From: Amoebidium appalachense
Taxonomy: Eukaryota; Protista; Ichthyosporea
Direction of reading: 5' to 3'
Assembly: GCA_963693365.1 (NCBI GenBank)
Contig: CAVNZM010000023.1
Coordinates: forward strand, 9,077-73,076
Length of the DNA: 64,000 nt
Shown: in pieces, positions 38,658-60,863 of the stretch
Position numbering within the stretch: position 1 is the stretch's first letter
Layout of the letters: the number at the start of each line of letters is the position of its first letter
Notes under the pieces: model-generated
The model's input: the letters and a program-made list of their open reading frames with translations, nothing else
Database searches by the model: none
Told to the model about the DNA's origin: nothing
Program-made: the position numbers and the translations under genes

Positions 38658-38720
38658 TGTGTGAATGGATAGAAAATAAACGCGGTGCTGCTTATGTACC
38701 CGCGAGGCGCGCGCGGCCGT

Positions 38721-40068: not shown

Positions 40069-40581
40069 GTGCGCACGACCCCTGAGAACAAGCCAGGCGA
40101 GGTGCCTCGGGCAAGCGCCATAGACATCATTATGGTCATTAACGACTGTAGCACCGAGAGAGCTCAGGCAACCTGGACCTATCAAAAAGGAAAAGAATGG
40201 GCAGTCCGTGAAAAATTCACGGACTGGCAATTCCCAGGAGAGCGCCAGCGAAGAACACCCACACTAACAGCGAGCCAAGTAGTCAAGCTCATCAACGCGC
40301 TGCCAGGCCCGAAGGCGGCCGCGTTCCGCGACGAGAGCGCCGATGTGTTCGTGAGATACCTTGGTGGGGACGAACCCCTGTGCGCCGAGGTTAAGGACAA
40401 CCGCCTGAAAGCATCCGAGACTCCCGAGGGCGTGAATGCGTTCGCTGCCGCCTCCCCAGCACCCCCGCAGCCCACCAGAACCCCTGACTCGCTGGGATTG
40501 CTATTGGATGCAAATACGCGATACACAACAGCTCAGTCCAATCACATGCCTTTTTATTTTAAGTTCAGCGACCGAATGTGA
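40069..40581 (+). CDS. Short Bro-N-like paralog (possibly truncated)
   Basis: SAIDII...QFPGERQRRTP...LINALPGPKAAAFR...VRYLGGDEPLCAEV aligns with the N-terminal domain of 38721-39671. Confidence 0.6.
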   Translation: MRTTPENKPGEVPRASAIDIIMVINDCSTERAQATWTYQKGKEWAVREKFTDWQFPGERQRRTPTLTASQVVKLINALPGPKAAAFRDESADVFVRYLGGDEPLCAEVKDNRLKASETPEGVNAFAAASPAPPQPTRTPDSLGLLLDANTRYTTAQSNHMPFYFKFSDRM

Positions 40582-40760
40582 TTGGGCAGAAATATCATTC
40601 CGGTACCATTGGCTCGTTTTGTTCAATTTTATGGCCATTGCGTCATCGTGGTCCAGTCGGGTGGGTTTTGATTGCGTCACCGCGGCTCACAGTCATGTAT
40701 TCAGCCCGACAACGTTGACAAGCAGCCAGTAGCGAGCAGTCTGTCCATCCATGATCCACA

Positions 40761-43700: not shown

Positions 43701-44223
43701 TGCTGCAGCGGAGGACCACGAAGTTCCAGCCCCGGCCGCGGCCGAGGTCGGGCCGCAACCGGGGCGGGCCAAGCGTGCACGCCGCGGGGCTGCAGGCGCC
43801 GCCGCGGGCGCGGCGCCCAGTCCCGAGATCGCTCGCATTTTCCAATGTCTTCTCAGGGACGACTTTGTCGCCATGTCGTTGCTGCTGGAAGAGGGCGTGG
43901 ACATGTCGACGTTCCAGTGGCGCAAACAGGCGGCGCGCGGCAAGAAGTGGATGCAGGCGTACCAGCCATGGATCGAATACGTGCCGAAATCCGGGGAGAA
44001 CGACTTGACGCTGCACATGCTGGCCGCGGCGTTCATCCACGGCAGGGGCGACGTGCGCGGCGTGGCGCGCGAGGGTGTAATGACAAAGCAGTGGCAATGC
44101 CATTTGACCAAGTTCGTCACGGGTAGCAAGGGAAATACATGGCGGTCTTACGTTTCCGGTGGTCCGGTGCTCGTTAAGGAAGGGAAAGTCTGGCGACTCA
44201 ACCCATTGAGCCCACTTGCATGA
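40761..44223 (+). CDS. SF2 ATPase/helicase of the Z1-domain type (~1150 aa); +1 frameshift in T4 at 41547-41550
   Basis: Walker A SGKCQVGKT and Walker B LILDEIHE lie in the first ORF. VGVTATP, PDTYIG, IIAGDMARCGVTF and QICGRLC lie in the second. Removing one T gives DTFNAWENLFYYFNPTLARVWD, an open join. Confidence 0.75.
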
Positions 44224-44225
44224 TG

Positions 44226-45128
44226 TCACGATGTTGGTTCGAGTGGGGGGGGCAAGTTGGTTAATATTAACGATGCAAACCTCGGTGGTACGGCGTTTGC
44301 TATTAGAATATGCATTGCAATGATGTTTAGCGGGAGCTCTGTTATGTAGCCAGTTGGGAACGTCTGGACGCTCTCTTTTTCTGTAATAGTCATGTTGCGT
44401 ATATATCGAAACTCGGCATCCCATAAATAAAACCCTTTTGATGTCATCGTGAACAGAAGACCGTCAATTGGACGTGGGGCCCCCACACCATGGCGGTATT
44501 TCAAGCCCCCCTCTAACCACGCCTCCAAACGCCCCTGCGACAATGAACTGTTTGTTATCCATGCCGTGTCTCTGGACGTTATTACATCTTTGGGAGATGG
44601 GGTTTGAACGAAGGGCAATGTCGACGGATCCCACCCATCGTATGCAATGAGTCGTCTGCGGGTCTGGCACACTCCGTGGTCGGCCATGTTGACGATGACA
44701 TATGGCACTCCTTCTCGACCTAGAAGACTTCTTAGACGTGGGTGGTTGACCTCCTCCACGGAGAAACTGTCATATGGCAAGGAATCAAAGAGATCGAGCA
44801 TGTACAAAATCAGCTCCAATGTGTTGTCCTGGTCCCCCGCGTGATTGCGCGCGCTCGACAGCTCCTGGCACGGCGGGCTCGCATGCACGTGCAGGTGGTC
44901 GCCTGCCTCCATGGCCGGTACGGCCTCCATCAGCTCGCGCGCAAAGTCCTCTGCGGGCACGTCGCCTATGGTGCGCAGCATGTGCACGGCCCCGGGGTGG
45001 CGGGTGCGGTGCACCTCCAGCGCCACGTCCCAGCTGTCGACCGCCACCGCCACCACCGCACCCGCCTGTCGCGCACCCTCACTGAACCCTCCCGCGCCAC
45101 AGAACAGGTCGATCACGTACACCACCAT
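44226..45128 (-). CDS. C5 cytosine DNA methyltransferase (Dcm/HhaI-like), copy 1, intact
   Basis: Motif I IDLFCGAGG, IV SPPCQ, VI VEEV (ENV variant), VIII QTRRRL, IX QTFP, X IANAVPP. Confidence 0.93.
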   Translation of the reverse strand: MVVYVIDLFCGAGGFSEGARQAGAVVAVAVDSWDVALEVHRTRHPGAVHMLRTIGDVPAEDFARELMEAVPAMEAGDHLHVHASPPCQELSSARNHAGDQDNTLELILYMLDLFDSLPYDSFSVEEVNHPRLRSLLGREGVPYVIVNMADHGVCQTRRRLIAYDGWDPSTLPFVQTPSPKDVITSRDTAWITNSSLSQGRLEAWLEGGLKYRHGVGAPRPIDGLLFTMTSKGFYLWDAEFRYIRNMTITEKESVQTFPTGYITELPLNIIAMHILIANAVPPRFASLILTNLPPPLEPTS

Positions 45129-45259
45129 GCTTGTGGATGCCTCGGATTTTTTGTGGATGGATCGGGGCTTCTCAAAACAAAAAACAGCCAAATACAGACT
45201 TAATTACATCCAAGCCTGCTCACAACGCGTCCGTGCCCGGGTACGGGAACCCGACACCC

Positions 45260-46281
45260 TCACGCGTGGTCATGTCGCGGTACGTGTCGGGGTTGACCCG
45301 GGGCATCTGCATGGCCCCGGGCTTGAGACACCGGCGCCGCCGAAATTGTATTCAGAATTGCGCAGGCCATCGCCGGCGGGACTGCGTTGGCGATTAACGT
45401 TTCTCTGCTCTCTTTCGAAGGCACGCTTAGAGCCGTGATGTAGCCACATGGGAATGTCTGGAGCTTTTCCAATTCAGATGTTTGGATCCGTCTTATATAT
45501 TCGAAACGTTCGTTCCATAGGTAGAACGGACTTCGCACGACCGTGTAGAAATATGCATTGCTAGGTAGCGATTTCCATGTCGGAAACACCTGGGTTTTCT
45601 TGGGGATAGTAACTTCCATGTCGATGGTCCTTGTATTTTCCATTGGTCCCACTCCCTTGTCTCCCTCCATGTTTGCATTCGTATTGGGTAAATGCTCGCG
45701 GGGGTAATCCACGTAGCGTGCGGGGTTGGGTCTAGTTGGCTTAGTAGCGTCGGGGGCGAGGATCTGGGCATAGCGTAAGGGTTCCAACCGTCATATGCAA
45801 ATAAACGCCTACGTGTCTGGCATACCCCATACTCCCACATGTTCAGCACAATGTACGGCACGCCTTCCTCCGCGAACAGCTCTCTCAACCCGCGGTTGTT
45901 GACCTCCTCGATTGAGAAGCTGTCGTACGGCACGCAATCGAGGAGGTCCAATGTGTATCTTACCAACTGCAACGTGTCACCCACACGCCCCAGCCCCAGG
46001 CGCATCTCCGACAGCTCCTGGCACGGCGGGCTCGCGTGCACGTGTAGGTGGTCGCCGGCCTCCATGGCCGGCACGGCCGCCATCAGCTCGCGTGCAAAGT
46101 CCTCTGCGGGCACGTCGCCTATGGTGCGCAGCATGTGCACGGCCCCGGGGTGGCGGGCGCGGTGCACCTCCAGCGCCACGTCCCAGCTGTCGACCGCCAC
46201 CGCCACCACCGCACCCGCCTGTCGCGCGCCCTCGCTGAACCCTCCCGCGCCACAGAACAGGTCGATGACGTACACCACCAT
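45260..46281 (-). CDS. C5 cytosine DNA methyltransferase, copy 2, frameshifted at ~45590-45650 (pseudogene or assembly error)
   Basis: Motifs I-VIII are in the 46323 frame; FYLW..QTFP..IANAVPP are in the 45787 frame. N-terminal part is nearly identical to copy 1. Confidence 0.85.
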
Positions 46282-46368
46282 GCTTGTGGATGCCACTGAT
46301 TTTTTGTGAATGGAACAGGGCATCTCAAAACAATAAACACCCGAATCGAACTTTATAATACAGCCTGC

Positions 46369-47484
46369 TCACGCCGCGTCCGTGCGCGGATACGGGAACG
46401 CCACGCCCTCGCGCATGGTCATGTTGTCGCGGTACGTGTCGGGGTTGACCCCGGGCATCTGCATCGGTCCGGGCGCCTGCTGCTGGCCCATGCCCATGCC
46501 CATGTCGTCGGCCCGCATGCGCTTGAGGCTGTCGCCGAAGTCGTCCAGCTCGGATTCCCGCTTGCGCGCGAGCATGGCCGCGAAGTCCGCCGTGGGCCGC
46601 GCGTTCATGGCCGCGCCGGATGCCGCCAGCAGCGCGTTGTTCTGCGCCTGCAGGCTGCTGTTGAACGCCTGCACGGACACCTGCTGCTGGAAGTTGCGCA
46701 TGCGCGTGTACTCGTCGCGCTCGGCGGCCTCGAACATGGCCATGCGCTGCGACACGTCCTCCTGGGCCTTGAACCACGGAAGCAGGAAGTTCTTCTCGAG
46801 CGCGGCCTCCTGCGCCTTGAGCTGCTCGTTCTCGGCCTGCAGGCGGAAGTACTCGAGCTCCAGCTCCATCAGGCACTGCTGTAGCAGCTTGATCTCGCGG
46901 TCGCGCTTGGTGATCTCGATGGAGTCGGCCGGCTTGCTCTGGCGCACGAGGTCGGAGAACTGCGCGGCCACCTTGTCGAACCCCGGGTCCACGCGCACGC
47001 TCAGCGCGGCCATGGTGGTCGGCGGAACGGGGTGCTCGGCCTTGACGCGGCGGCGCTGCAAGGCTTTTGTGTGCACGGGAGCCGCCAAACGCTCGATGGC
47101 TGCCGCGAGCGCGGCATCGAAAGCCTCGGGGGTCGTGTCTGGTTCCAGCCTCAGCCAGTTCTCTGCGTACTCCTCCATGCTTGCGGTTGGGTTGGGTAGG
47201 TGGCGGGGGTGGAACGCATTCGCAAACATCGGCAGCGCGAGCACGCGCCAGTCGATGCCCGGGACCATCACCGTGCCGTCGCCCGACGACGTTACATTGA
47301 TCAGAGGCGCTCCGCTCGGCTGTGTGAGCCATGCGTGCAGCACGGCGAGCAGCACACCGAGGGACGTGACCATTGTGGCGTGCGCGGGACCAAACGATTC
47401 TGGATCAGGCGAAATGGCTAGCTTGATTTTTTTGGGTCTTCCCGCCAGGATCTGGTTGAGCACATCGGGGTCCATGGATTCCAT
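46369..47484 (-). CDS. Hypothetical viral coiled-coil protein (~371 aa)
   Basis: GC3-biased ORF. Probable start MESMDPD lies just after the stop of the upstream gene. Confidence 0.75.
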   Translation of the reverse strand: MESMDPDVLNQILAGRPKKIKLAISPDPESFGPAHATMVTSLGVLLAVLHAWLTQPSGAPLINVTSSGDGTVMVPGIDWRVLALPMFANAFHPRHLPNPTASMEEYAENWLRLEPDTTPEAFDAALAAAIERLAAPVHTKALQRRRVKAEHPVPPTTMAALSVRVDPGFDKVAAQFSDLVRQSKPADSIEITKRDREIKLLQQCLMELELEYFRLQAENEQLKAQEAALEKNFLLPWFKAQEDVSQRMAMFEAAERDEYTRMRNFQQQVSVQAFNSSLQAQNNALLAASGAAMNARPTADFAAMLARKRESELDDFGDSLKRMRADDMGMGMGQQQAPGPMQMPGVNPDTYRDNMTMREGVAFPYPRTDAA

Positions 47485-47486
47485 AA

Positions 47487-48608
47487 TTATGTGTAGCAGG
47501 CAAAATCGGTCGCGTCCACTGTGCTGTGCAGCATTGCCGTGAGCCACGCTAGGAGGACGACGTGGGTCAAGTAAACCGAGGCCTTGGTATACGATTGTTC
47601 CCGTATAAAGTCTCTTAGTTGAGCATGCCCAATCTCTGTACCATTTGCACCCCGTTTCCTGTTTGCCAGTGCTAGGTTCCACACGACATCTGTATACCCG
47701 CTCGATGCGTCGTAGTATCTATACGGGTGACCGGCGGGAGAGATCTGGGATGCCGTGTTCTTCTGTGCAATCCTGGCCGTGTTCACTATATCGGCGATGG
47801 TTAGGTCGGTCGCGGCGATGGCTAGCTGGGTTACAACAGCCGATGTCGCCGATGGGTACTCCGGATCTGCGCCTAAACATGACTGGACCAGTGCCTCGAC
47901 CACCACGCGCGACTCGTCGTCACGCACCGCTGGCCAAGCCAGTGTGCTGGTGAAATAGGATCGCACCGAACAACCCTTCTCTGAAGCCGTACTGGCAATA
48001 CCAACTACCATGCGTCTGTCCACCAACTCCAGTGTAAGCACCATCATCGATTCGTCCGTCAGATTGTGAGCATCACGGATGACCAACACGGCGCGCTTGT
48101 CGTTCTTTGCGATCCATTGGATGGCACGACGGGTGTCCGGATCGAGCAGGTCCTGGACCGTCAGGACCCATGGGAAGAGGTCAAGGGTCTTGCACACCTG
48201 GAAGACACACGTAAGCTTGCCCGCACCACTTGGGCCGTAGAGCAGCAACCGCCCGCCGCCCCCCATTTCCGCGTGCACTCGCGATACTTCCGGCCGATTC
48301 GCGAGGATGTCGTCGACGATGTCCTCGCTTGGCGTCGACCGTTGCAGCATCACGCCAAGTTGTTTTGACAACTCGGTGTCGATGTCGGAATCGACGGAAA
48401 TCCCAAGGTAATCCAACATATGCTTTCTACCCGCGCCCTTGGTGACCGCCTTTCTGATCTCAGCCTGTACACGAAGATAGCCCTTCAGTGTCCTCATTTC
48501 ATTTAAGGCCTCCAACGCCTGCTGCTTTGTCGACGTCGGGGACCGTGCGTGATCTTCAACGTCGGGGTTTACACCCTCGAAAGAAACGTCCATATCATGC
48601 CCGTACAT
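47487..48608 (-). CDS. Divergent AAA-type P-loop ATPase, 373 aa
   Basis: LLLYGPSGAGKLT Walker A; degenerate Walker B VLVIRDAH. Confidence 0.7.
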   Translation of the reverse strand: MYGHDMDVSFEGVNPDVEDHARSPTSTKQQALEALNEMRTLKGYLRVQAEIRKAVTKGAGRKHMLDYLGISVDSDIDTELSKQLGVMLQRSTPSEDIVDDILANRPEVSRVHAEMGGGGRLLLYGPSGAGKLTCVFQVCKTLDLFPWVLTVQDLLDPDTRRAIQWIAKNDKRAVLVIRDAHNLTDESMMVLTLELVDRRMVVGIASTASEKGCSVRSYFTSTLAWPAVRDDESRVVVEALVQSCLGADPEYPSATSAVVTQLAIAATDLTIADIVNTARIAQKNTASQISPAGHPYRYYDASSGYTDVVWNLALANRKRGANGTEIGHAQLRDFIREQSYTKASVYLTHVVLLAWLTAMLHSTVDATDFACYT

Positions 48609-48989
48609 TTATTTCGGCGCGCCCCACCGGTGCAGGGGGGCGCGCGCGGGCTCGCGGTGCAGCTGGGTGAGGTCGTCGCCCATCTGCATGACGACCCACC
48701 GCAGGCGCACGATCTCGCGCACGAACCCATCCTGGTCGTGTTGCAGGTCAGCCAGTCGGTCTATAAGCTCTCCCACCTTGTCGTAGACGGCGTGCAGGTC
48801 GCGGCGAAATTCGTCCAGCTGCCGTGCGTACATCTCCACGAGCTCCGCCCTGCGGCCCACCTCGTGCTCCAGGCGCTCGACATTGTCCCGTAGGCGCCGC
48901 ACCGTTGAGTATTCATCGTTGCGCATGGCGCGCCCTAGCAGCACCGCGTCCGAAAGGGCCGTGAGTGGCCGCATGACGGTAAGCGACAT
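48609..48989 (-). CDS. Small coiled-coil hypothetical protein
   Basis: ATG 48989 (MSLTVMRP), heptad pattern, abuts the next gene. Confidence 0.6.
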   Translation of the reverse strand: MSLTVMRPLTALSDAVLLGRAMRNDEYSTVRRLRDNVERLEHEVGRRAELVEMYARQLDEFRRDLHAVYDKVGELIDRLADLQHDQDGFVREIVRLRWVVMQMGDDLTQLHREPARAPLHRWGAPK

Positions 48990-49048
48990 TTTGTTTGGCG
49001 GGTGCACGCGTCTTTGCACGTAGAAAAAACAGCGTGATTCGAGAAACA

Positions 49049-49376
49049 TTTACGCGGCCGGCCGCGGTGATACGAGAATCAGACTTAGAAAAAAAAAACG
49101 AGTTTTATTTACGCGGCCGGCCGCGGTGATACGAGAATCAGACTTAGAAAAAAAAAAACGAGTTTTATTTACGCGGCCGGCCGCGGTGATACGAGAATCA
49201 GACTTAGAAAAAAAAACGAGTTTTATTTACGCGTGCCGCGGTGATACGAGAATCAGACTTAGAAAAAAAAACGAGTTTTATTTACGCGGCCGGCCGCGGT
49301 GATACGAGAATCAGACTTAGAAAAAAAAAAACGAGTTTTATTTACGCGGCCGGCCGCGGTGATACGAGAATCAGAC
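49049..49376. repeat. Tandem array A: six ~60 bp units with a 14-bp palindrome CGCGGCCGGCCGCG and an A-tract
   Basis: Unit tttacgcggccggccgcggtgatacgagaatcagacttagaaaaaaaaaacgagtttta at 49049, 49108, 49168, 49226 (palindrome deleted), 49281 and 49341 (partial). Confidence 0.97.
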
Positions 49377-49508
49377 GAGATACAGAAAAAGACGAACCCA
49401 GTTCGAACAGGCAGGGGTTATACATACAAACCCCAAAGACAATCAAATAACATATAACTCCCGAGCTCACTACACTCCACTACCACTTTGCTTACAACTT
49501 GTCTTTGC

Positions 49509-50696
49509 TTACAACTTGGGACCGACATAATCGCCAAAGGCGCGGAGGGTCATCGGCATCATGTACTCGAGCTCCTCCCATTCGGGGGACAAGGGGCCAT
49601 CGGCACGAACCACGTAGATAACGTTGTTGCGGTTAGTTCTGATGCCGGTGGCTTGGTACAACCATTCGAGGTAATCGATTTCCTCGGTGCTGCTGATCTG
49701 ACAACGAAAGTGCACGTGCCCGTAGTGTCGAAACCGAGGCTCGAACGTGCCCAACGCATGAACGAACTCTGCTCCCCAATGTTTACCGTTTTGAAAAACC
49801 CCGAGGAGGAAACGACCCCTGGCAGGCATGCGGTCATCAACCTGGTGGGGTTGCCACGCCGCAATCTTCCGGTGTTCGGGCATGTCTGATGCGAGGCTAG
49901 CCAGGGCATACGGTGCACACGACGCGAAGTATGGAATCGGCCCCCCCTTGTCGCGGAAAATTTCACCATTGTAGTGTGCACGGACGCCGTTCTCGTCGGC
50001 AGGGGGTAGCGGTAAGTTGATCCCCCACACCATTAAATCTTGCAAGCCAAAGAATTCATCCTCGCACAGAACGTTCCCAATGGCAAGAAGTTTGCCGTCT
50101 TCGCCGTGTGTACTCTTGGGCTTGGGTGCGGGCTGGGCTTTCTGGGGGGCACGGGGCTTTGGGGACTGGCACGGCGAGGCTGCTTGTTCGTCGTCGCGGT
50201 TCCCGATGAGAAGACTTGCCTGTTTGACAATTTCATCCAAATAGGCACCACATGAAGTCTCCGATCCTTCTTCCAAGTTCTCGCGGGTGCAGACGCATCC
50301 GAAACGCGCAAAACTCGTGCTTTTGGTTACGTTTTCGCGGTACTCGTCGCTCCGACCGACCCCGGTCAGTCGTGTCAGAATGATGGTGGAACGTTTGAAT
50401 ATCTGCTTTTCCTCCTCACTCGCCCAAGTGGTGATTTTGTCGGCGTGGAAACGGGCGATCAACTTCTTGATACCGCTCAACGACGCGGACTGGAGACACC
50501 CAACCCACTTGGTCAGAAGGTGCGGCGAGCAGCCAGCCGCCTCCGCCGCAATGGACAAATTGGTAAAATCCGTGTTGTCGATGAACTCGGACACGGACTT
50601 GTCGGCGTCGCCCTCCACCGATGCGAGGTAGCGCAGACCGCGGTGAATGCAATCTGGGTCAAACCTCTTGTAGTCTACAACGAGTTTGTTCGCCAT
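49509..50696 (-). CDS. Unknown viral protein, paralog of 51521-52927 (HAD variant of J-like motif)
   Basis: Shares RAHYNGE, PY.LA.LA.D, PA.GRFL.G and NN.IY.VRAD.PLS.EWEELE..PMTLR.F..YVGPK with the paralog. Probable start MANKLVVDY. Confidence 0.85.
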   Translation of the reverse strand: MANKLVVDYKRFDPDCIHRGLRYLASVEGDADKSVSEFIDNTDFTNLSIAAEAAGCSPHLLTKWVGCLQSASLSGIKKLIARFHADKITTWASEEEKQIFKRSTIILTRLTGVGRSDEYRENVTKSTSFARFGCVCTRENLEEGSETSCGAYLDEIVKQASLLIGNRDDEQAASPCQSPKPRAPQKAQPAPKPKSTHGEDGKLLAIGNVLCEDEFFGLQDLMVWGINLPLPPADENGVRAHYNGEIFRDKGGPIPYFASCAPYALASLASDMPEHRKIAAWQPHQVDDRMPARGRFLLGVFQNGKHWGAEFVHALGTFEPRFRHYGHVHFRCQISSTEEIDYLEWLYQATGIRTNRNNVIYVVRADGPLSPEWEELEYMMPMTLRAFGDYVGPKL

Positions 50697-50804
50697 GTTT
50701 TTTCCACGTCTGGTTGATTGTCTGTGTGGTTGTGATCCATTTATTCCGCGTCTGTTGTTTATATATCTCAAATGGGATCTAAATGGCAAAAAATCAAGAC
50801 AAAA

Positions 50805-51484
50805 AATCGATATCGCAATATGATTGGTCCGCCATGATGTAAAGATATTTTCGCGCCAAATGATTGGTTCGCGGGCGGTTCACGTGTCACTTCGTGTCAC
50901 TTGGCTATTTCGATTGGTCCGCCCTGAATTAAAAACCGGTTTCGGCCGGGCGGACCAATAAAAAGTTCGCCCAGATGCCAGCCATTGGATGGAGTCAGAG
51001 GAATTATTTTTGATTAGTTCACATGGTTAAATTTGAAGCTCTGATTTGTCGCCATGGGTCGCGTGTTCTTCATCTATTGGTTTATTGTTGAAGCATAAAT
51101 TTCATTGCAAGTCTGAAGCGCCCAACGCGGTGCACATCGATATATATATATATTCCGCGGCTCACGGATCGAAACACCATCAAATAATCGAAATCGCAAT
51201 ATGATTGGTCCGCCATGATGTGAAGATATTTGCGCGCGAAATGATTGGTTTGCTGACGGTTAACGGGCCAATCATAAGTTCGCCAAGGTGCCAGCCATTG
51301 GAAGGAGTCGGAGGAATTATTTTTGGTTTGTTCATACGGTTTTCAACAAAGGTCTGATTGGTTGCGGTGGGTCGCGTGTTCTTCATCTATTGGCTTATTG
51401 TGTTGAAAGCTTAATTTTCATTGGATATCTGAAGCGCCCAACGCGGTGTACATCGATATATATACGCGGCACGCGGGTCGAAAC
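50805..51484. promoter_or_regulatory. Duplicated CCAAT-rich divergent promoter region (direct repeat 50805-51175 / 51186-51484)
   Basis: Two diverged copies run from atcgcaatatgattggtccgccatgatgt to tgaagcgcccaacgcggtg(c/t)acatcgatatatata, with many ATTGG/CCAAT boxes. Promoter role is inferred. Confidence 0.7.
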
Positions 51485-51520
51485 CCTCAGTGCACACAAG
51501 TAAAAGACACATCATTCAGT

Positions 51521-52927
51521 ATGGCGCACCTCGACAGCTTCCTTCCTGATTTTACCCAGTTAGACGCGGAGTGTGCCCATCGGGGTTTCGGTTTGCTTGC
51601 CTCCCAATCCCCAACGTTCGAAGATGACGTGCGTCTGTTCCTGAAAAGCATGAAGCCGTCCGCCAGAATCCAAGACATAGCCGCTGAAGCCGGCAGGTCA
51701 ACACTCCTGTTCACCACCAAGTTTGCACAACTCCAGGCCTTAGACTCGGGCGGGATCAGGAGAGTTGCAAAGACTTTTCACCCGGACAAGCAGTCACCGA
51801 ACTTGTCCGCGGAGCTAAGCAAGGCGATGACGGACACCTACATCGTCCTCGGTCGCTTGTCGTGTGGAAAGAATGCCGAGACCTACATCGCTTCGGTGGA
51901 ATTTCACGAGAGTTACCTCCACTACGGTTGCGTATTCAGCCGCGCTAACCGCGAGAACGACGAGAAAGAAACGCGTTGTGGCCAATACCTCAAAGATTGG
52001 GTGGAAGGTCTTCAACGCGCAGGAAAGATTAACAACCACGGTTTGACACAGGACGCAGAGTGCATCACGATCACGGACACGGACACGGACACGGGAACGG
52101 AGACACCGGACTCGGACTCTGATGACACGGGCATACAGGACCACTCGGACACGAACAAAAACGTTCTTGCCATAGAGCCACCCATCACACACGACGACCA
52201 ATTCAACCTCCTGTCCGTCACGGAGGCAGTCAAGAAGAAGTCCGGTGGCAAGGAGGCTCGGAAGCACGCGGGTGTGTTGGTGTGGGGGGTCGACCGGGAG
52301 CTTCCCAAGGCAAACGAATGGGGAGAACGTGCACACTACAACGGCGAGTTTGTTCGCAAAAAAGACGACCCCATTCCCAAAATCGGCAAAGTGGGCGATC
52401 CCTATGTGCTGGCAACCCTTGCTGCAGACATCGAACACAAGCATGCTACCTGGCCATCCCACCTTGCCGACTCTCGTCTTCCCGCACTAGGACGCTTCCT
52501 TGCAGGGTTTCTCGACAAGCGTCGCACAGCCCCAAAAGTGTGGCCCCCACCTGTGCATTTTGCGCACGTGCAGATCCGTCTCAACTTCGCATTCAGAGAC
52601 TACGATCAACTCGAACCCTTAGTATACAATAGCAAGGACAAGACTACGATGGGCCACACCCGTTGGCTTAATACGTACGGCATTGAGCGCAACCAAAACA
52701 ACATCATTTACATTGTCCGGGCCGACAACCCCCTTTCAGTCGAGTGGGAGGAACTGGAGGGGAAGCTCCCTATGACACTGCGAGATTTCGCAAGATATGT
52801 CGGTCCGAAGGCAAAGCGCCTGGCCGCTCCCAGCGCCGAGGGCATGCAGGCCAGCAAGAGCACAAGGCGCAAACGGGAGGCCACCCCCCCCACCAAGCCA
52901 GCCAAGAAGGCCAGGAAGACCATGTAG
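51521..52927 (+). CDS. Unknown viral protein with J-domain-like HPD motif, paralog of 49509-50696
   Basis: GIRRVAKTFHPDK...AMTDTYIVL, acidic DT/DS linker, shared C-terminal domain and basic tail PAKKARK. Confidence 0.85.
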   Translation: MAHLDSFLPDFTQLDAECAHRGFGLLASQSPTFEDDVRLFLKSMKPSARIQDIAAEAGRSTLLFTTKFAQLQALDSGGIRRVAKTFHPDKQSPNLSAELSKAMTDTYIVLGRLSCGKNAETYIASVEFHESYLHYGCVFSRANRENDEKETRCGQYLKDWVEGLQRAGKINNHGLTQDAECITITDTDTDTGTETPDSDSDDTGIQDHSDTNKNVLAIEPPITHDDQFNLLSVTEAVKKKSGGKEARKHAGVLVWGVDRELPKANEWGERAHYNGEFVRKKDDPIPKIGKVGDPYVLATLAADIEHKHATWPSHLADSRLPALGRFLAGFLDKRRTAPKVWPPPVHFAHVQIRLNFAFRDYDQLEPLVYNSKDKTTMGHTRWLNTYGIERNQNNIIYIVRADNPLSVEWEELEGKLPMTLRDFARYVGPKAKRLAAPSAEGMQASKSTRRKREATPPTKPAKKARKTM

Positions 52928-53349
52928 GCATGTCAGACCTGCAACAAGACCATGTAGGCATGTAGGCAATAACGCTGGCGTTGCGTGGATGTGTGTGTGT
53001 GGTCATGGTATTGGTGATATTGCGTAAGGCTGCTACAGCGATGGCTATTTTTGCTTTCGTGTTCAACCATCAGTATTCAATTTACACACCATGTTCTGTC
53101 TTTTGGTTTCGGTGTTGGCAATAGAGATATGTAATTGCACACCGACATGTGTCAACGGTTCGTAGTCTTTGCTTCTGTTTGTCAGCACTGCCAAGGTTTG
53201 TATCCATCAAAAATATATCTGAATATCAAATGGAATACGTGGTCACGAATGTCCACCACAGCGCTGTGCGTTGTGTGTTGTGTTGTATGTATTGTCATGT
53301 GTATATGAAAATAAAGTATTTTCAGGTCCTTGTATTTTTTCGGTTTCGT

Positions 53350-54038
53350 CTTTTGAGTCTTTAAGGCTTTCGGCAAAACGCAACTCTTGCAAAGTCTTTC
53401 GGTTCCGCACCGCGGCCAACACGACTCTTGCAATTTTTCATTTTTCAGAGTCTTTGGGCTCCGCACCGCGGCCAACGCGACTCTTGCAATTTTTCTGAGT
53501 CTTTCGGCTCCGCACCGCGGCCAACACGACTCTTGCAATTTTTCATTCTTCAGAGTCTTTGGGCTCCGCACCGCGGCCAACGCGACTCTTGCAATTTTTC
53601 TGAGTCTTTCGGCTCCGCACCGCGGCCAACACGACTCTTGCAATTTTTCATTTTTCAGAGTCTTTGGGCTCCGCACCGCGGCCATTTTTTTCTGGTCTTT
53701 CGGCTCCGCACCGCGGCCAACACGACTCTTGCAATTTTTCATTTTTCAGAGTCTTTGGGCTCCGCACCGCGGCCAACACGACTCTTGCAATTTTTCATTT
53801 TTCAGAGTCTTTGGGCTCCGCACCGCGGCCAACGCGACTCTTGCAATTTTTCTGAGTCGCCCGCGGCACACGACTCTTGCATTTTTCATTTTTCAGAGTT
53901 TTGGGCTCCGCACCGCGGCCAACGCGACTCTTGCAATTTTTCATTTTTCAGAGTCTTTGGGCTCCGCACCGCGGCCAACGCGACGCTTGCAATTTTTCTA
54001 GTCTTTCGGCTCCGCACCGCGGCCAACGCGACGCTTGC
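53350..54038. repeat. Tandem array B: ~13 units of mostly 56/49 bp (GGCTCCGCACCGCGGCCAAC(A/G)CGACTCTTGCAATTTTT...)
   Basis: Unit starts at 53401, 53457, 53506, 53562, 53611, 53667, 53702, 53758, 53814, ~53859, 53904, 53960 and 54008. Confidence 0.97.
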
Positions 54039-54639
54039 GTACACAATCTTGCGCGGGAAGAACGCGGGATGGTCTTTCTTGTTGTCTCCGCAGCGCGCGT
54101 TTCTCAAGCCTTGATTATGGTTACGATCTCTTCGCTAAGAAAAGTCTCCACATCACCGGCGAGTACGGTTCTAGGAATTGGTCGGCGTACACAAACATGC
54201 GGCGACGGCGCCGCGCTCGTGCCCTGGCTGCGTGGGTCTTCTTTCTTTTGCGAATACACATAACACAAACGGTTGATATCCTGAGTGTAGCCCGCTGCCA
54301 GGGCCTATTTCGTTGATTTTTCGAACGCGCTGCATGCCGATCGCAACCCCAGATTAGCTAATCAAATGCCGTCGATTGACATTTTCACAAATCGAATGTC
54401 TTGCCAATCAATTGGATCTGGTATAGGTCAATCAAATGCCGTCAATTGACATTTCAACCAATCGAATATCTCACCAACCAATAGGAGCGTCCGTTCCAGA
54501 CTGCGCCGAATGCAAAGCCAATCACGTCAGTTTCTTTAATAATCATCCAATCCAAGCGACCCAAGAATGCTTAAAATCGATGCGCACTTGCAACCATCCC
54601 ACCACTTTTCTTCTGGTCTTTCGCCGCGCCAGCAGCAAC

Positions 54640-55524
54640 ATGGCGGCACATACTGTCAGGTATTATGCGGACTGGCTTGGCCTGTCTCCTACAACAAACC
54701 ACATCCGCCTCGTCATTAGCGATGCATACATAGGGAAAATTTCCTCGGATATAACGGCTTCTTGTGCCCTTGTGGACCTCTCGAGGAATGCAAACAGGCT
54801 TGTCACAGGCGCTCTCCGCCGTCTTGAAATACTCGTCGACTACCCTACGCCATATGGAGGCGAGGATCAGGGCAGAAATGCCGCGGCAGCGTCCAGATTC
54901 TATGGTGAATGGTTCCATTGGCTCGAGGGTACAGAGGTTGAGCCCGAAAGCTTTTTGGTGCTCGACAGATTCAAACACGCGGACCCCAAACCGTCACTCC
55001 TTCGACAACACGTGCTTTCGGCACCCACGCCCAATCAGCACCCCATGGAAAACCCGTCGCCCGCTTTCCTGGCCCACCTCGACCACCTCACCATTGACTT
55101 CGTTCGCCCAAAGGAGGCCGTGAAAAACTTCAACTCATGGTGCGAGCTGCGGCTCAATGAACTCACAGCCAACACCTGGAAATGCCAATCGACCGAGAAG
55201 ATCGATACCTTCACCTACACACTTTCTCGCTCCAACTACGACATGTACCGTTCCGTTTTTACTGCAACGGTCCCCATGGACACCTCGAGTCCTGCAACGC
55301 CACCCCCAGCCCCCGCCGAGTCAACCACCTCCGAGCCCGCGCCCACACCCACAGCACTCACCCCCCCGCAACCACCCGCAGCCATGTCGGCGCCGCCCCA
55401 TCACTCAACCCCTCGCACGCCACATCGCCCGGTCGTGCCTGCGTGGACAAAGGGTCGCGGAAGCACCCGGGCCGCGCGCCGCGCGTCCCTACCCGTGTCC
55501 TCCCGCACGCGTTCCCGCAAGTAG
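54640..55524 (+). CDS. Hypothetical viral protein with Pro-rich/basic C-terminus
   Basis: Long ORF with probable start aacATGGCG at 54640, preceded by a CCAAT-rich region containing a ~70 bp duplication. Confidence 0.65.
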   Translation: MAAHTVRYYADWLGLSPTTNHIRLVISDAYIGKISSDITASCALVDLSRNANRLVTGALRRLEILVDYPTPYGGEDQGRNAAAASRFYGEWFHWLEGTEVEPESFLVLDRFKHADPKPSLLRQHVLSAPTPNQHPMENPSPAFLAHLDHLTIDFVRPKEAVKNFNSWCELRLNELTANTWKCQSTEKIDTFTYTLSRSNYDMYRSVFTATVPMDTSSPATPPPAPAESTTSEPAPTPTALTPPQPPAAMSAPPHHSTPRTPHRPVVPAWTKGRGSTRAARRASLPVSSRTRSRK

Positions 55525-55620
55525 ACGTGCCCTGCGGGTTCGGTGTGTATGTGTAGTCTGTATGTCGTTTGTATGTCTTGGCATTGGGGTTTGTCTGTAG
55601 TTGTTTATTATGGCTTTGTA

Positions 55621-56139
55621 CTAGTGACAATCGGCCGCGCACTGGTCGGTGCGCCAGGGGCCGTCGATCACTTGCATGTGCACGAGTATGTGCCGCTTTG
55701 AGCCCGGCACGGGCTTGATTTCACACGAGTCAATAAAGTCTCCGGGTCTGAGGCCCGCGGTCCACATGTCCCCACAGCAGCGCACAAACACGACTTCTCC
55801 CGTGTTCATACCTTGTCGGATGTAAACATCCACGCAGCGCGCTGCGCAGTCGTGTTCGTGCAAGTCTTCGTGTGTGTGTTTCACAACCTTCACCATAGAC
55901 CTTCGACCGGGATTTCCGTGGTCACTCCAGGTCTGTGCCCCCGACAACGCCTTGCACGCGCGCGGGGGTGTCGCCGTGGGCTCGGTGTGGTGCGTTCTGG
56001 GACGCTTGCCCAACCATCCTTGCAGCATCCACAACAGCCGCCGCATCGGGTCGGCGGCGTGTCTTCGGTGTCGGAATGTCGTGGGCATCTGGTTGTAATG
56101 GTACCTGGTCCACTTGGGTCCCTTGCCTACTGCTACCAA
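55621..56139 (-). CDS. Possible hypothetical protein
   Basis: ORF fills the gap and has a downstream AATAAA on the minus strand; start uncertain. Confidence 0.35.
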   Translation of the reverse strand: MVAVGKGPKWTRYHYNQMPTTFRHRRHAADPMRRLLWMLQGWLGKRPRTHHTEPTATPPRACKALSGAQTWSDHGNPGRRSMVKVVKHTHEDLHEHDCAARCVDVYIRQGMNTGEVVFVRCCGDMWTAGLRPGDFIDSCEIKPVPGSKRHILVHMQVIDGPWRTDQCAADCH

Positions 56140-56204
56140 TTACTTGGGCCGCGATTGTATAAAAGCGCCATCGCGGCCTCTCAGTCTGCTGTCAGCTCGC
56201 ACAG

Positions 56205-56732
56205 ATGCCAAAAATACACTTGGAAACGGAAGCCCTCGCAGCCTTCACCTCCAGCCTTACTCGGTTTGTCTCCGGTGCACGCTTCAATGGCCAGGGTTAT
56301 GCCGCCGTCGACCTCGTGCCGCTCAAACTCAGGGCCGTCCTGGAAAAGGCCGGCACGGTGTATGCGGAGACGACTGCCCCGCTTGCGTTCCTCGAAGCGT
56401 CCAACCGCGACGGTCTGAACCATTTCCGCTTTTTATACACCGACACCACCGGTCTGTCCGACACGATCTTTGTCGACCTACAGCCCGGTATCGCGTTCCG
56501 TATGTGCTGGGTCCGCTGCGACATCGATCTGGCCTTGCTCCCACACGGGGACCCACTCGACGAACCCCTGCAGCGCGCGGTGCCCCTCAAGGCGACAAGC
56601 GCGAGCACCACCATGGTGAGCATCGACTTGATTAGGTGTGGCGCTAAAGTGCGCCACGCCGGCGGTTGCGACATTCTGATGCTTGAACTGGTTCCAGGCA
56701 ACAGGATAGAAAGGCGCAGCAATAGAGTGTAA
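56205..56732 (+). CDS. Hypothetical viral protein, 175 aa
   Basis: ATG ORF with TATAAAAG 47 nt upstream. Confidence 0.65.
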   Translation: MPKIHLETEALAAFTSSLTRFVSGARFNGQGYAAVDLVPLKLRAVLEKAGTVYAETTAPLAFLEASNRDGLNHFRFLYTDTTGLSDTIFVDLQPGIAFRMCWVRCDIDLALLPHGDPLDEPLQRAVPLKATSASTTMVSIDLIRCGAKVRHAGGCDILMLELVPGNRIERRSNRV

Positions 56733-56921
56733 CATAGAGAATGACACAGAACAAGCGCACGCCATCTGCTCCGGCACGGATGCAGCTCGCATACAGCAGC
56801 AGCGCCAGCATGGTGTCGTCCATTGCACGTATTTTTACCCCAAAATATAACTGCCCATGCCATTGCGTGCCTATAAAAGCCGCGTGCCCCGAACCAATCT
56901 TCATTCGCCCCCTTCTTAAAC

Positions 56922-58352
56922 ATGACCGACTACGCGATCTTCGAGGACCCCACCCGCGGCCCCCTCCACGACGTGCCCTTCGTGCCGCGCGAGTGCGCGC
57001 AGTACGATTGGTCCGAGAGTATGGCCGTCGACTACCTGCGCAGCGTGGTGGCTTGGATCAAGGGATCCTCGGCATACATCCTCAAGCAGTGGTCCGACGA
57101 ACGCCAACAGTTCGAGCACCGCATCGTGTCCAAGCGCGACGCGGTCGACACCCTCGGCAAGTTTCAGTTCACCATCCACTCGGACCGCGGCGCCCGTGTG
57201 GCAAAGTACACCGGTCGCGAGTACCTCAATGGCCCCGACATCCTGGTGTACGAGCGCGTCGTCTACGACCCCGCGGACCCCGATCCCCTGACCGGACGTC
57301 GCAGGTACACCACCGGCCCCTACCACGTCTTCAACCTGTTCCCTGGCTTCCGCCACCGCCCAAGCGACATGCCGTCGGAAGAGCGCGAGTCTCTGGCCGC
57401 GCCCTTCCTCGCGCACGCGCGCGACCTGTTGTGTGGTGGCAACGAGGTGCTGTTCGCGTACATGCTGACCTGGCTCGGGCATCTGTTTCAGTTCCCCGCC
57501 GCGAAGCCCGGCAGCGCGCTGCTGTTCGTGTCGCGCCAGGGAGCGGGCAAGAACGTGTTCTTCCAGGTCCTCACCGACGTCATCGGTGCAGAGCACACCG
57601 TCTACGTGAACCGCAAGGACAGGATCCAGAACCACTTCAACGCGCATCTCCAGAACAAGCTGCTCGTCATTGTCGACGAGGTGCTGTTCGGGAACTCGCG
57701 CGAGATCAACAACATCATGAAGTCGCACATCACCGAGTCTACTAACCTGGTCGAGAAGAAGGGTCATGACGCCCATACCGTTCGCTCGTGCGAGCGCTAC
57801 GTGCTGCTGACGAACGAATCGTTGCCCGTGTTGGTCGAGGCCAGTGACAGGCGCTACGCCTGCATGGAGGTGTCCGGTGAGAGGATCGGCGACACTGCCT
57901 ACTTCGGCTCGTTCGTCGCCCACCACGCCCAACCGAAGGCCCTGCAGGCCATTCACGACACACTCGTGCGTCTGCCCAACGTCCCCCCCGTGCTGCCCCC
58001 GCCCCCGATGACCGAGCTGAAGCAGGAACTGCGACAGGCAAACATGGGCGACGTCATGCTGTTCCTGCGCGACATCGCGTATGGAACAGACGGCTGCGAG
58101 GACCTGGCCATCGCCGACGGCGCCCACGTCACCACCACGGGCATGGCCGAGCTCATGCGCACCTGGGCCGCGCGAAATGGCCGCGACCCCGCGACAGTAA
58201 GTGTCAGGAAGCTGGGGTCCACCATGGGCAAGCTGTTCGGCGGGCGCACGAAGCGGCCGAGGCAGGATGTGGCCGTAGGCGGGGAGGGGGCGGGAGACAC
58301 GGAGTGGGTGCATGCGTACACGTTCGTACACGAGAAGGTCGTGGGGGTGTAA
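56922..58352 (+). CDS. D5-like SF3 helicase (DUF5906 type), paralog of 36559-38055, 476 aa
   Basis: WLGHLFQFP, SRQGAGKNVF, LVIVDEV, VLLTNE and DRRYACMEVS motifs; TATAAAAG 50 nt upstream. Confidence 0.9.
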   Translation: MTDYAIFEDPTRGPLHDVPFVPRECAQYDWSESMAVDYLRSVVAWIKGSSAYILKQWSDERQQFEHRIVSKRDAVDTLGKFQFTIHSDRGARVAKYTGREYLNGPDILVYERVVYDPADPDPLTGRRRYTTGPYHVFNLFPGFRHRPSDMPSEERESLAAPFLAHARDLLCGGNEVLFAYMLTWLGHLFQFPAAKPGSALLFVSRQGAGKNVFFQVLTDVIGAEHTVYVNRKDRIQNHFNAHLQNKLLVIVDEVLFGNSREINNIMKSHITESTNLVEKKGHDAHTVRSCERYVLLTNESLPVLVEASDRRYACMEVSGERIGDTAYFGSFVAHHAQPKALQAIHDTLVRLPNVPPVLPPPPMTELKQELRQANMGDVMLFLRDIAYGTDGCEDLAIADGAHVTTTGMAELMRTWAARNGRDPATVSVRKLGSTMGKLFGGRTKRPRQDVAVGGEGAGDTEWVHAYTFVHEKVVGV

Positions 58353-58494
58353 GAAGCTGCCCCTGTGATCGAAGGGCCGGGTGGAATCCATCCTCAAATT
58401 CCTTGAGGCTGGCCTCCATTGATCTTGAGGCCGGCTTCCAGGCCATGGGTATAAAGGCTGGGCCTACCGCAAAATAAAACCTGTACCTAGATTG

Positions 58495-58920
58495 ATGGCC
58501 ACTCTCGCAATGCAGCCACCAGCGTACAACACGATTGCATCCCCCGCTCCGCAGTCCTCCCGGGCCCGCGTGGTGATGCGCAACGGGCAGGTGCTGGAGG
58601 AGGGGGAGGTGACGCCGATAAACGACGACGAGGGTAAAGTCCTCACCTATGGGGAAGTGCGTAACGGAGGAGAGCTTTGGGTGAATGTCACCTACATTGC
58701 TAAATCCAGCGGGAAGACGTGGAGCGATTGGTTTCGGCTAGATGGCACACACGCACTCTTAAATGAAATCGAGAAGAAAAGGAGTCCTGCAGCGAGTCCT
58801 GGGATTGTCCAGGACTCCTCTGATTGGTCGGTTGTCGATTCGGCTCGCATAAACTACAAGGGGAAAGACTGCGAGCGACTCCGCGGTACCTGGGTCTCAT
58901 TGGATTACACCGCCCAATAA
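58495..58920 (+). CDS. Short/truncated KilA-N domain protein
   Basis: WVNVTYIAKSSGKTWSDWFRL...RGTWV pattern; stops right after RGTWV. Confidence 0.7.
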   Translation: MATLAMQPPAYNTIASPAPQSSRARVVMRNGQVLEEGEVTPINDDEGKVLTYGEVRNGGELWVNVTYIAKSSGKTWSDWFRLDGTHALLNEIEKKRSPAASPGIVQDSSDWSVVDSARINYKGKDCERLRGTWVSLDYTAQ

Positions 58921-58978
58921 AGCCGTTTACTGTGGTTGTGTAGCGTTTACTGTTCGCGCACTCCGTGCGTGTCCGTGT

Positions 58979-59975
58979 CTACCCCAACAGCGTCGCGGCC
59001 AGCGACTCCGAGAACTCCTCGCGCTTGCTGATGTCCCGGAACCCGCTGATTGCCGGCAGGTTGTCCATGCCCGCGCTGTGGATCGTGGGGTCCGGTCGGA
59101 TCTGCAGGTTGCCGTTCTTCTTGTACACGGCGGGGGCCGCCACGTTGCGCGGCCGGCTGGTTGCCGCCAACACCTCCTGTGCGGACAGTTTGGCCACGCT
59201 GCTGCGTGCCCGCGGCTTCATCTCGCTCCCTTGGAACAACCCCGTGCCCTGGATCTTGGATATGGCGTCCATTGTGTTGTTGCTGACGTCCGGCCCCACC
59301 GTGTGCACGCTGTGCGTGAGCATGGGATGCACGCTGGGCCTCGTCGCCGCTCCGATTAGCCCGCTGGGTGTGCCCGATGGCACCACCGACGTCGGCTGCA
59401 GCGCCTTATGCGCCGGCGCTGGTCCCGGCACCACCACCTGCTGCCCCCCCCGCGTTGACAACCGTGGGTGCATTGGGCACGGGCGCGGCAGGCGGCGGCG
59501 CGGTTTGCTGTTGCGCCGCCGCGGGGGCGGGCGCGGGCGCGGGGACGGGCGCGGGCGCGGGGACGGGCGCGGGGTCCGCCATGGCGAAGTCGTAGAAGTC
59601 TGCGGTGGCATAGTGGTCATCATAGCCGAGCGCGTCATCGTCGTAGCCAGCTCGTGCGTACCCAAAGGCCGCGAGCGCGTCGTCGTCGTATGCTAGCGCG
59701 TAGTCGTCGTCGTCGTCGACCATGCCCTGGTTTCCATAGGCCAGGGCCGTATCCTCGGGTTCATAGGTCTCGGAGGCCAGCCCGTCCACGTCTGCAAGCG
59801 CGGTATCCTCATCGAAGGGGCCGTTCGCCCAGTCCTCGGTGTGCTGGTGGTGGTGCGAATCATCCTCGTACTCCAAGGAACCGCAGCCGCCATATGTCGG
59901 CTTGGTGAAGTAGTACACCCCCGCAGCCAGGAGGGCCATGTAGATCAGTGATCGGTCCATCGTCCCGGAGTTCAT
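58979..59975 (-). CDS. Putative minor capsid protein P11-like membrane-anchored protein; +1 frameshift in C8 run 59444-59451
   Basis: N-terminal hydrophobic helix LIYMALLAAGVYYF, acidic and Pro/Ala repeats, and C-terminal KNGNLQIRPDPTI resembling the NCLDV P11 C-terminal motif. Confidence 0.6.
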
Positions 59976-60057
59976 ACGGGGTGTATAGAAAAAAGCCCGA
60001 CCGCGGCAAGCCAAGGTATAAAAAGCCCCGTCAATCCACATTTCACGCCAGAACACA

Positions 60058-60843: not shown

Positions 60844-60863
60844 GAATTATCCATGCCTGTGGC

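Follow-up and report, generated by a model that had tools for sequence, protein, structure and literature searches.

Head-to-head orphan paralogs with a J-domain-like hairpin and related 3' repeat arrays in a viral island of Amoebidium appalachense

Related viral systems

Giant-virus insertions in protist genomes have been described mostly as methylation-silenced cargo, and the literature surveyed names no viral factor that maintains latency. In the available part of their published account, the GEVEs of Amoebidium appalachense are intron-poor and gene-dense elements in an intron-rich, methylated host, and carry D5 primase, PCNA, viral DNMTs and membrane-fission genes (PMC11244446). The same description fits a viral island in the window studied here (the whole stretch of DNA that was analysed, 64,000 nucleotides), where membrane fission is represented by a Vps4/CdvC-like ATPase. 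That part of the account makes no mention of DnaJ or J-domain genes, latency, episomes or gene-linked repeat arrays (PMC11244446). Subscription journals, figures and bioRxiv supplements aside, no published description of the gene pair or of the arrays reported below was found.

Several known systems resemble parts of this locus, as far as the available portions of the cited papers describe them. Polyomavirus large T is, like the product of gene B, viral, early-type and nuclear, with an N-terminal HPD loop between two helices (PMC11720896); for gene B the nuclear and early-type character is predicted. Unlike large T, genes A and B encode no recognised origin-binding domain or SF3 helicase, HPD occurs in one of three family members, the consensus HPDKGG is absent and the host virus is a large DNA virus. 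The EBNA1/oriP system of EBV (PMC2660980) and the LANA/terminal repeat system of KSHV (PMC3798644) have tandem GC-cored repeats near the gene of a nuclear viral protein, as is the case here. However, the present locus has two arrays, each behind its own paralog, the element is integrated, and binding of the arrays is only putative. The E2/EBNA1/LANA fold found no match in the models of A and B, which are too poor to exclude one.

Baculovirus hrs (PMC4535591, PMC2834656) share with the arrays tandem units of about 60 nt, a palindromic core (in array A) and the presence of related arrays at more than one place. They differ in that only two arrays occur in the 41 kb of viral DNA available, each behind a member of a single gene family, and in that array B has no palindrome. 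The constitutively expressed genes of the latent Ectocarpus EVEc (PMC13236599) and the immediate-early genes of medusavirus (PMC8557863) are small gene sets that are read without viral activation and have orphan, nuclear products. Medusavirus encodes no RNA polymerase; most of its immediate-early genes are orphans, often with nuclear products (PMC8557863). The likeness of these sets to A and B is one of description, and the promoter here is of the CCAAT/TATA kind, compared to a palindrome in medusavirus.

Organization of the locus

The preliminary description gave the order of elements as array A, a leftward gene, a promoter, a rightward gene and array B, and this anatomy is confirmed (Table 1). 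The genes are an undescribed pair of paralogs in a viral context, as had been proposed, and a conserved cis word is kept beside each.

Table 1. Features of the locus, the viral island and the adjoining host DNA (window positions)
Feature	Position	Strand	Remarks
Host ArgJ exons	10012..17126	-	intron-rich gene in CpG-depleted microsatellite DNA
Intron-poor viral island	22500..64000	.	left edge approximate
YqaJ	31880-32536		viral island
Vps4/CdvC-like AAA ATPase	34415-36112		viral island
D5-like DUF5906 proteins	36559-38055 and 56922-58352		viral island
C5 methylases	44226-46323		viral island
Array A	49048..49376	-	6 units (cores) of ~60 nt
Gene A (ORF A)	49509..50696	-	395 aa orphan, paralog of gene B
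J-like hairpin of gene A	50373..50477	-	residues 74-108, HAD for HPD
Promoter region common to A and B	50697..51520	.	824 nt, divergent, CCAAT/TATA
Tandem promoter-unit duplication	50800..51484	+	copies 50800-51175 and 51181-51484, direct
Gene B (ORF B)	51521..52927	+	468 aa orphan
J-domain-like helix-HPD-helix hairpin of gene B	51749..51853	+	residues 77-111, HPD 87-89
Bipartite NLS-like basic tail of gene B	52865..52921	+	residues 449-467, pattern match
187-nt 3' block	53032..53218	+	90% identical to 26407-26593
AATAAA, only one in gene B 3' flank	53310..53315	+	98 nt before first array-B core
Array B	53380..54038	+	49/56-nt units, 12 cores and one degenerate unit
KilA-N	58495-58920		viral island
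PCNA	60058-60843		viral island

The island has a CpG o/e of ~1.1 and the adjoining host DNA around ArgJ is CpG-depleted. This compositional break and the intron-poor cluster of viral genes are as expected of a GEVE. The island belongs to an endogenous large DNA virus that may be Nucleocytoviricota-like, a mirusvirus or another lineage also being conceivable. The hallmark virion genes (major capsid, A32, VLTF3) and a JmjC gene were absent from the ORFs scanned; the island extends beyond the window. A search by way of the D5-like genes found no relatives of the virus. Local duplications occur elsewhere in the island, namely the methylase pair and a third array (array C, 24131-25262). Array C is unrelated to arrays A and B, with scores of 12-16 and a null mean of 15.

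The A and B proteins

The proteins align end to end with 34% identity over 432 columns (E 1e-58), so that their likeness is not limited to a long C-terminal domain, as had been supposed. Identity is 36% at third codon positions and 54-58% at first and second positions, and four-fold sites agree in 16 of 44 cases (36%); the duplication is therefore old. The gene B protein consists of an N-terminal domain, an acidic linker, a conserved C-terminal domain of ~180 aa (about residues 255-432) and a basic tail, which we take to be NLS-like. The gene A protein has no basic C-terminal tail. The C-terminal domain is nearly neutral, with net charges of -2 and +4 in the two proteins.

No helicase, P-loop family or recognisable DNA-binding domain matched A or B. 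Single-sequence structure models are of low confidence (pLDDT 34; 41.6 for the C-terminal domain), and fold searches with them gave no hit at Z of at least 5 or E below 0.001, a result that argues neither for a new fold nor against a known one. A transglutaminase-like or papain-like fold (PF01841) was suggested by weak matches (Z 2.8-4.1) and gained no support, the hhalign probability being 0.14, no better than in 100 shuffles; this comparison used only 3 query sequences, with 24 of 30 loci extracted and at least one of them in the wrong frame.

The C-terminal domain, for which the preliminary description recognised no family, has no assigned fold. The N-terminal half contains a J-domain-like hairpin. 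Comparison with the J-domain by hhalign gave a probability of 78, a pairwise E of 1.8e-5 and a score of 37.6 against a maximum of 22.2 in 150 shuffles. A PDB sequence search with a limit of E 10 gave seven matches, every one a J-domain (E 0.15-0.86), and the Atlas leads are DnaJ clusters with scores below 0.9. The alignment covers helices II-III only, 35 columns of a domain of ~65 residues. Pfam DnaJ (PF00226) has no match in A or B, neither reaching the cut-off for the full domain, and the gene A hairpin alone scores only E 0.21 against the J profile. The tripeptide is HPD in B, HAD in A and HSD in the homolog described next, and is thus intact in one of the three members. Judged from this motif, binding of Hsp70 is plausible for B and doubtful for A, which may be a J-like partner.

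The preliminary description called for a homolog search, and one homolog came to light, though no homologous locus with its flanking context. This protein (P0001) has 400 aa (E 5e-26), lies on a contig of 2648 nt and is the only one found among 1.84 billion representatives; no helicase or P-loop family matched it. Profile searches, which covered forms of up to 819 aa, returned either P0001 alone or, at lengths 97-333, nothing, and the word-index candidates contained no gene B homolog. Metagenomes, IMG/VR, prokaryote genomes and phages gave no homologous locus, and the array word was not found in IMG/VR, a scan of which reported one relative without the locus. A candidate locus (L001), found in a pattern scan with the best-conserved of the six peptides of that scan, proved to be a chance match of 8 residues.

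The repeat arrays and 3' flanks

Both arrays are situated 3' of their own gene, in the same orientation relative to the transcript. An array-A unit, read in the direction of gene A, consists of a T-tract, CTAAGTCT, N11 and CACCGCGGCC, followed by AATAAA; five units contain the perfect 14-bp palindrome CGCGGCCGGCCGCG. An array-B unit consists of a T-tract, C[AT]GAGTCT, N10 and CACCGCGGCC, and contains neither AATAAA nor the palindrome. Array B as a whole is a 105-nt higher-order repeat of the 49/56-nt units. Unit spacing is irregular, 35-60 nt in array B and 55-60 nt in array A, and a two-unit strand of array A folds at z -4.3. The bipartite motif that had been claimed in opposite orientation in the two arrays is present: TTTTC[TA][GA]AGTCT-N8-12-CACCGCGGC matches 5/6 array-A units and 7/12 array-B units, and nothing else in the 64 kb. 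The trailing CGCG, part of the same claim, is found in some array-B units, whereas others have CACG.

Comparison with shuffled controls had been set as a check beforehand, and the units of the two arrays are alike above that level: of 1000 dinucleotide shuffles, 11, 12 and 2 were as similar under the three scoring schemes. Of 998 further segments of the viral region, none attained the array score of 23, and at least 6 scored 22. The signal is therefore genuine, though modest. Exact inverted matches between the two arrays reach 10 nt at most, and a 13-nt match also exists upstream of both (23/2000 shuffles). The 22-nt bipartite word is still present beside A and B, whose synonymous sites are close to saturated; since the units are nevertheless alike above shuffles, the word is probably under selection.

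The 3' flank that precedes the array is ~450 nt long for gene B and ~130 nt for gene A. In array A, AATAAA is present in 5/6 units and is followed by a T-tract, and in both flanks the common word lies downstream of AATAAA and a T-tract. The second copy of the 187-nt block in the gene B flank lies in the 3' flank of an unrelated gene (26633-27943, minus strand).

The promoter region

The common region contains 13 CCAAT boxes, and TATA-like words are located 69 nt before the ATG of A and 64 nt before that of B. One promoter copy has 7 CCAAT boxes, a number reached in 0/1000 shuffles. In a survey of 27 viral ORFs, A and B alone combined at least 5 CCAAT boxes with a TATA-like word, both within 300 nt, which counts as one observation, the region being common to both genes. 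The two promoter copies consist of blocks that are 89% and 81% identical, and a block of ~65 nt is missing from copy 2. A mirror-symmetric cassette with a duplicated CCAAT promoter had been proposed. The genes and arrays are indeed inverted and the promoter is duplicated, but the duplication is direct and recent, so that the mirror symmetry is only partial.

Possible roles of the gene pair and arrays

Our preferred reading, held tentatively, is that A and B are head-to-head orphan paralogs of an endogenous large DNA virus that encode J-like nuclear regulators and are read by host RNA polymerase II, the arrays being 3'-end or boundary elements. One viral regulator gene would have been duplicated long ago together with its 3' element and inverted, giving the head-to-head pair. 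Each 3' element would then have expanded and been homogenised separately into array A and array B, and the promoter unit would have been duplicated recently. The host polymerase likely transcribes both genes from their common CCAAT/TATA promoter, and the products are predicted to be nuclear regulators that recruit Hsp70. From their position and composition, the arrays are likely amplified terminators or boundaries that stop the A and B transcripts before the viral genes beyond. Outside the cassette, gene A points into same-strand viral genes starting with 48609-48989, and gene B into 54640-55524; read-through would matter here. The module may also help the virus to persist in the nucleus. Against this reading, the array similarity has a p of only about 0.002-0.012, and a word with T-rich and GC-rich parts might arise by convergence. 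Furthermore, AATAAA-like words of the island are often upstream of genes, and in the available text on medusavirus and mimivirus they lie on the promoter side or do not act as poly(A) signals (PMC8557863); array A could thus be an amplified promoter of the next gene.

With its pair of orphan genes, host-type promoter and two well-delimited cis arrays, this locus is a candidate active island. Arrays that act as terminators or boundaries would illustrate how some viral genes remain expressed next to silent ones. Proteins that bind the arrays would make the locus a first giant-virus persistence system of the LANA/EBNA1 kind. Should neither be true, the locus is still a rare family of orphan J-like genes in a virus, accompanied by two minisatellites.

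A plain gene duplication with two neutral, functionless minisatellites, in which a 3' flank expanded by slippage and the similarity is residual or due to chance, is unlikely, yet the most probable of the alternatives. The island has other local duplications and the unrelated array C, and the similarity between arrays A and B is modest. However, a 10-nt exact and a 12-nt near-exact word at fixed spacing, kept while four-fold sites fell to 36% identity, are hard to obtain neutrally, and both expansions are at the same homologous spot.

Next in probability, unlikely but a live alternative, is a persistence module such as the preliminary description had suggested, in which A and B would bind cognate arrays of the iteron, parS, oriP or terminal-repeat kind and the J-like domain would recruit Hsp70, driving replication or nuclear retention of a multi-copy genome. 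The word conserved beside each gene despite synonymous saturation, the palindrome in array A and the NLS-like tail of B agree with such a module, as do, in the available descriptions, the combination of J-domain and repeat binding in large T (PMC11720896) and of repeats and cognate protein in EBNA1 and LANA (PMC2660980). On the other hand, neither protein has a helicase or recognisable DNA-binding domain, the charge of the C-terminal domain is close to neutral, the units are irregularly spaced and array B has no palindrome. More doubtful still is an always-on, repeat-insulated latency cassette in an otherwise silenced provirus, whose J/J-like pair would bind its own arrays, recruit Hsp70 and keep the genome copied or quiet as a giant-virus counterpart of LANA, EBNA1 or large T.

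It is improbable that the arrays are hr-like enhancers or promoter amplifications that serve downstream viral genes or lytic replication, their position behind A and B being incidental. The last array-A unit does close with a TAAATG start that leads in frame into ORF 48609-49049, the AAATAAAA of array A resembles words upstream of other viral ORFs, and one array-B unit has 17/18 nt repeated immediately ahead of gene 54640 (family D14). Baculovirus hrs are likewise palindromic repeat arrays that act as enhancers and origins, according to the part of the source available (PMC4535591). However, the D14 match is short and low in complexity, and the common word is confined to two arrays in 41 kb of viral DNA instead of being dispersed.

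The preliminary description had also envisaged that the cassette is mobile or invertible and has subterminal repeats, or that it is the relic of a fused terminus. This is very improbable despite the outward symmetry of genes and arrays and an IS630/Tc1-like transposase ORF 8 kb away, because the cassette contains no recombinase or transposase, its outer ends have no target-site duplication or terminal inverted repeat (no direct repeat of at least 7 nt, no inverted repeat of at least 5 nt), its arms have exact words of only 10-14 nt in common, its centre is a direct repeat, and a contig of run X1 spans from the left viral flank into array A (46677-49077).

Contigs from public runs

Contigs from public runs match both gene bodies almost letter for letter, and runs X1, X2, X5 and X6 cover 30/30 bins. 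No strand switch occurs among the joints covered, 15 of 17 in one set and 5 of 5 in another; the contigs break at the arrays and hence provide no test of inversion or excision. Island contigs have depths of ~300-580, versus 41-62 for diverged look-alike contigs, in X2, and ~1200-1900 versus 160-194 in X6, figures that give no copy number since the reference is look-alike contigs and not host single-copy DNA. No run recorded as RNA is among those listed as containing the locus, and two runs guessed to be RNA contain next to none of the words, which is not counted as evidence.

In runs X17, X18 and X19, gene A is spanned by long contigs from 49347/49452 to 50712/50865, and gene B by others from 51394/51500 to 53194/53324, at depths of 60-275. 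These runs belong to one study, are recorded as 'DNA?', hold about half of the words each, were chosen with this stretch and were seen as contigs only. Their pattern is what would be expected of RNA libraries in which mainly A and B are on, a lead that is not counted as evidence, the library type being off record. Cover is sparse (0-30) in the middle of the promoter, in array B and in most of the viral genes nearby, with the exception of paralog-like matches at 38.7-40 kb.

Organization of the cassette

Genes A and B, two paralogous orphans arranged head to head, are each followed on the 3' side by a tandem repeat array. The order array A, gene, spacer, gene, array B, proposed in the preliminary description, is present in the sequence. 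So is a bipartite word common to the two arrays and oppositely oriented in them; its pattern matches five of the six A units and seven of the twelve B units, with no further match anywhere in the 64-kb window. No exact inverted match between the arrays is longer than the 10-nt core. The score of an A unit against the higher-order B unit was reached by 11, 12 and 2 of 1000 dinucleotide shuffles under three scoring schemes. A score of 23, obtained for A unit versus B unit, was reached by none of 998 other windows from the viral region, at least six of which reach 22. Because of these shuffle and window scores, homology of the two arrays is considered probable, but not overwhelming.

Features of the cassette and its surroundings (window coordinates)
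Feature	Position	Strand	Remarks
Host ArgJ (ornithine acetyltransferase)	10012-17126		intron-rich; introns packed with poly-G and TG repeats
Host/virus boundary repeats	22093-22470		34-45-nt repeat; G-rich 9/18-nt array with CACGTG
Left-edge array	24131-25262		134-nt unit, 8.5 copies, 97% alike; CCAAT-rich; between divergent genes
187-nt block, other copy	26407-26593		
Unrelated gene	26633-27943		436 aa
Viral AAA ATPase	34415-36112		nearest CdvC/Vps4 (NCBIfam E 1e-40)
Orphan gene	38721-39985		316 aa; internal 65-nt repeat (39208/39820)
C5 DNA methylase genes	44226-46323		in tandem; second copy split across two reading frames near 3' end
Array A	49048-49376		6 units when split at cores
17-nt direct duplication	49486-49518		includes gene A stop codon
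Gene A ORF	49509-50696	minus	395 aa
Spacer between A and B			824 nt
Promoter region with alternative joins	50795-51494		
Gene B ORF	51521-52927	plus	468 aa
187-nt block, gene B 3' flank	53032-53218		
Array B	53380-54038		12 units and one degenerate, split at cores
IS630/Tc1-like DDE transposase ORF	61897-63999		long N-terminal extension; continues past window end

The gene duplication is old, as follows from the low identity of A and B at third codon positions (36%, with 54% and 58% at the first two) and at four-fold sites (16 of 44 identical). Retention of the array word despite such synonymous saturation suggests selection, or later conversion.

Proteins A and B

The two proteins had been described as sharing a long conserved C-terminal domain. 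The conservation of this domain stands (48% identity), but the proteins align end to end, at 34% over 432 columns (E 1e-58). The family has no Pfam or NCBIfam match, and its sole other member among 1.84 billion protein representatives is P0001, a protein of 400 residues. A three-way alignment delineates an N-terminal domain of ~165 residues and a C-terminal domain of ~180 residues, joined by a variable linker that in B and P0001 is acidic. The C-terminal domain is near neutral in charge, and its structure model is of low confidence, with no fold assigned.

Within the N-terminal domain of B, residues 77-111 resemble the J-domain in helix II, the HPD loop and helix III. All seven PDB matches of the N-terminal region at E values up to 10 are J-domains, and the leads from the Atlas search are DnaJ clusters, with scores under 0.9. 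Profile comparison with 29 prokaryotic J-domains gave, for a match that spans only 35 columns, a probability of 78 and a score of 37.6, whereas no score in 150 shuffles exceeded 22.2. The HPD tripeptide is intact only in B, being HAD in A and HSD in P0001. Cys19, His21, Cys135 and Cys152 (B numbering) are invariant in the three-way alignment and could be zinc ligands. Only B has a bipartite basic tail at its C-terminus; the 17-nt duplication at the gene A stop codon lies where gene B runs on into this tail.

Promoter and 3' flanks

The spacer is not mirrored but carries a direct tandem duplication with copies 81-89% identical, much younger than the duplication of the genes. It contains 13 CCAAT boxes, seven of them in one copy, a number reached by none of 1000 shuffles. 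TATA-like words are positioned 69 and 64 nt upstream of the two gene starts, and among 27 viral ORFs only A and B combine such a word with CCAAT boxes. This arrangement is a layout of host RNA polymerase II promoters. By analogy with the immediate-early genes of medusavirus (PMC8557863), it would be fitting for genes transcribed without viral factors.

The 3' flanks of A and B differ in length. The flank of B contains a 187-nt block, whose other copy, 90% identical, is found 3' of an unrelated gene in the same transcript orientation. In both flanks the array word, read in the direction of the transcript, comes after AATAAA and a T-tract. AATAAA is repeated in five of the six array A units, and the only AATAAA of gene B lies 98 nt before the start of array B. 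Same-strand viral genes, faced by both A and B, lie beyond the arrays. Within the island, however, words resembling AATAAA frequently occur on the promoter side, which counts against a 3'-end role of the arrays; in medusavirus such words are likewise promoter-side (PMC8557863).

The viral island

From ~22.5 kb to the window end the sequence is gene-dense, with CpG o/e of 1.0-1.3, whereas before this point it is microsatellite-rich (CpG o/e 0.45-0.58) and contains exons of the intron-rich ArgJ gene. The island encodes PCNA, two DUF5906 D5-like proteins, YqaJ, KilA-N, a T5orf172 domain, a C2H2 zinc finger, C5 DNA methylases and a Vps4/CdvC-like ATPase. It represents a large DNA virus endogenous to a eukaryote with DNA methylation and many introns; the presence of ArgJ speaks against an animal as host. 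The island is similar to the giant endogenous viral elements of PMC11244446. No capsid gene was found among the island ORFs scanned. The boundary repeats may represent a viral terminus. The left-edge array is unrelated to arrays A and B.

Possible origin and function

The reading that we favor, with somewhat less than even confidence, is that a gene together with its 3' element was duplicated in inverted form long ago, and that each 3' element would then have expanded separately into an array. The arrays would serve as 3'-end or boundary elements around the pair, which would be transcribed by the host and encode J-like nuclear regulators that may bind Hsp70. The leading alternative, itself unlikely, is that the arrays are neutral minisatellites. 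Next, and also unlikely, is a persistence module that would act like large T or EBNA1/LANA; these offer good precedents (PMC11720896 and PMC2660980, respectively), but no DNA-binding domain was recognized in A or B. It is quite improbable that the arrays are hr-like enhancers of the next genes. The mobile or invertible cassette suggested initially is highly improbable, with no recombinase, terminal repeats or target-site duplication found at the cassette.

Viral J-domain regulators and repeat arrays of large DNA viruses are already known kinds; no description of the A/B family and its arrays was found in the literature searched. They would be of far greater interest if A and B turned out to be the genes that are active within a silent provirus, and to bind the arrays. 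In a latent giant virus of brown algae 18 genes stay on (PMC13236599), therefore such genes exist, and the A/B pair is a concrete candidate.

Public sequencing runs

Contigs from public runs reproduce both gene bodies with only a few differences; the locus can thus not be an artefact of assembly. In contigs of runs X2 and X5, promoter positions are joined in other ways than in the window (51148 to 51494, 51401 to 51092 and 51148 to 50795); the number of promoter units therefore differs in other copies. Paralog-like contigs in several runs match only parts of the 316-aa orphan gene. Runs X17-X19 contain a branch at position 50385, inside gene A, where a variant runs into sequence absent from the window, which may reflect an insertion in a different copy of the gene.
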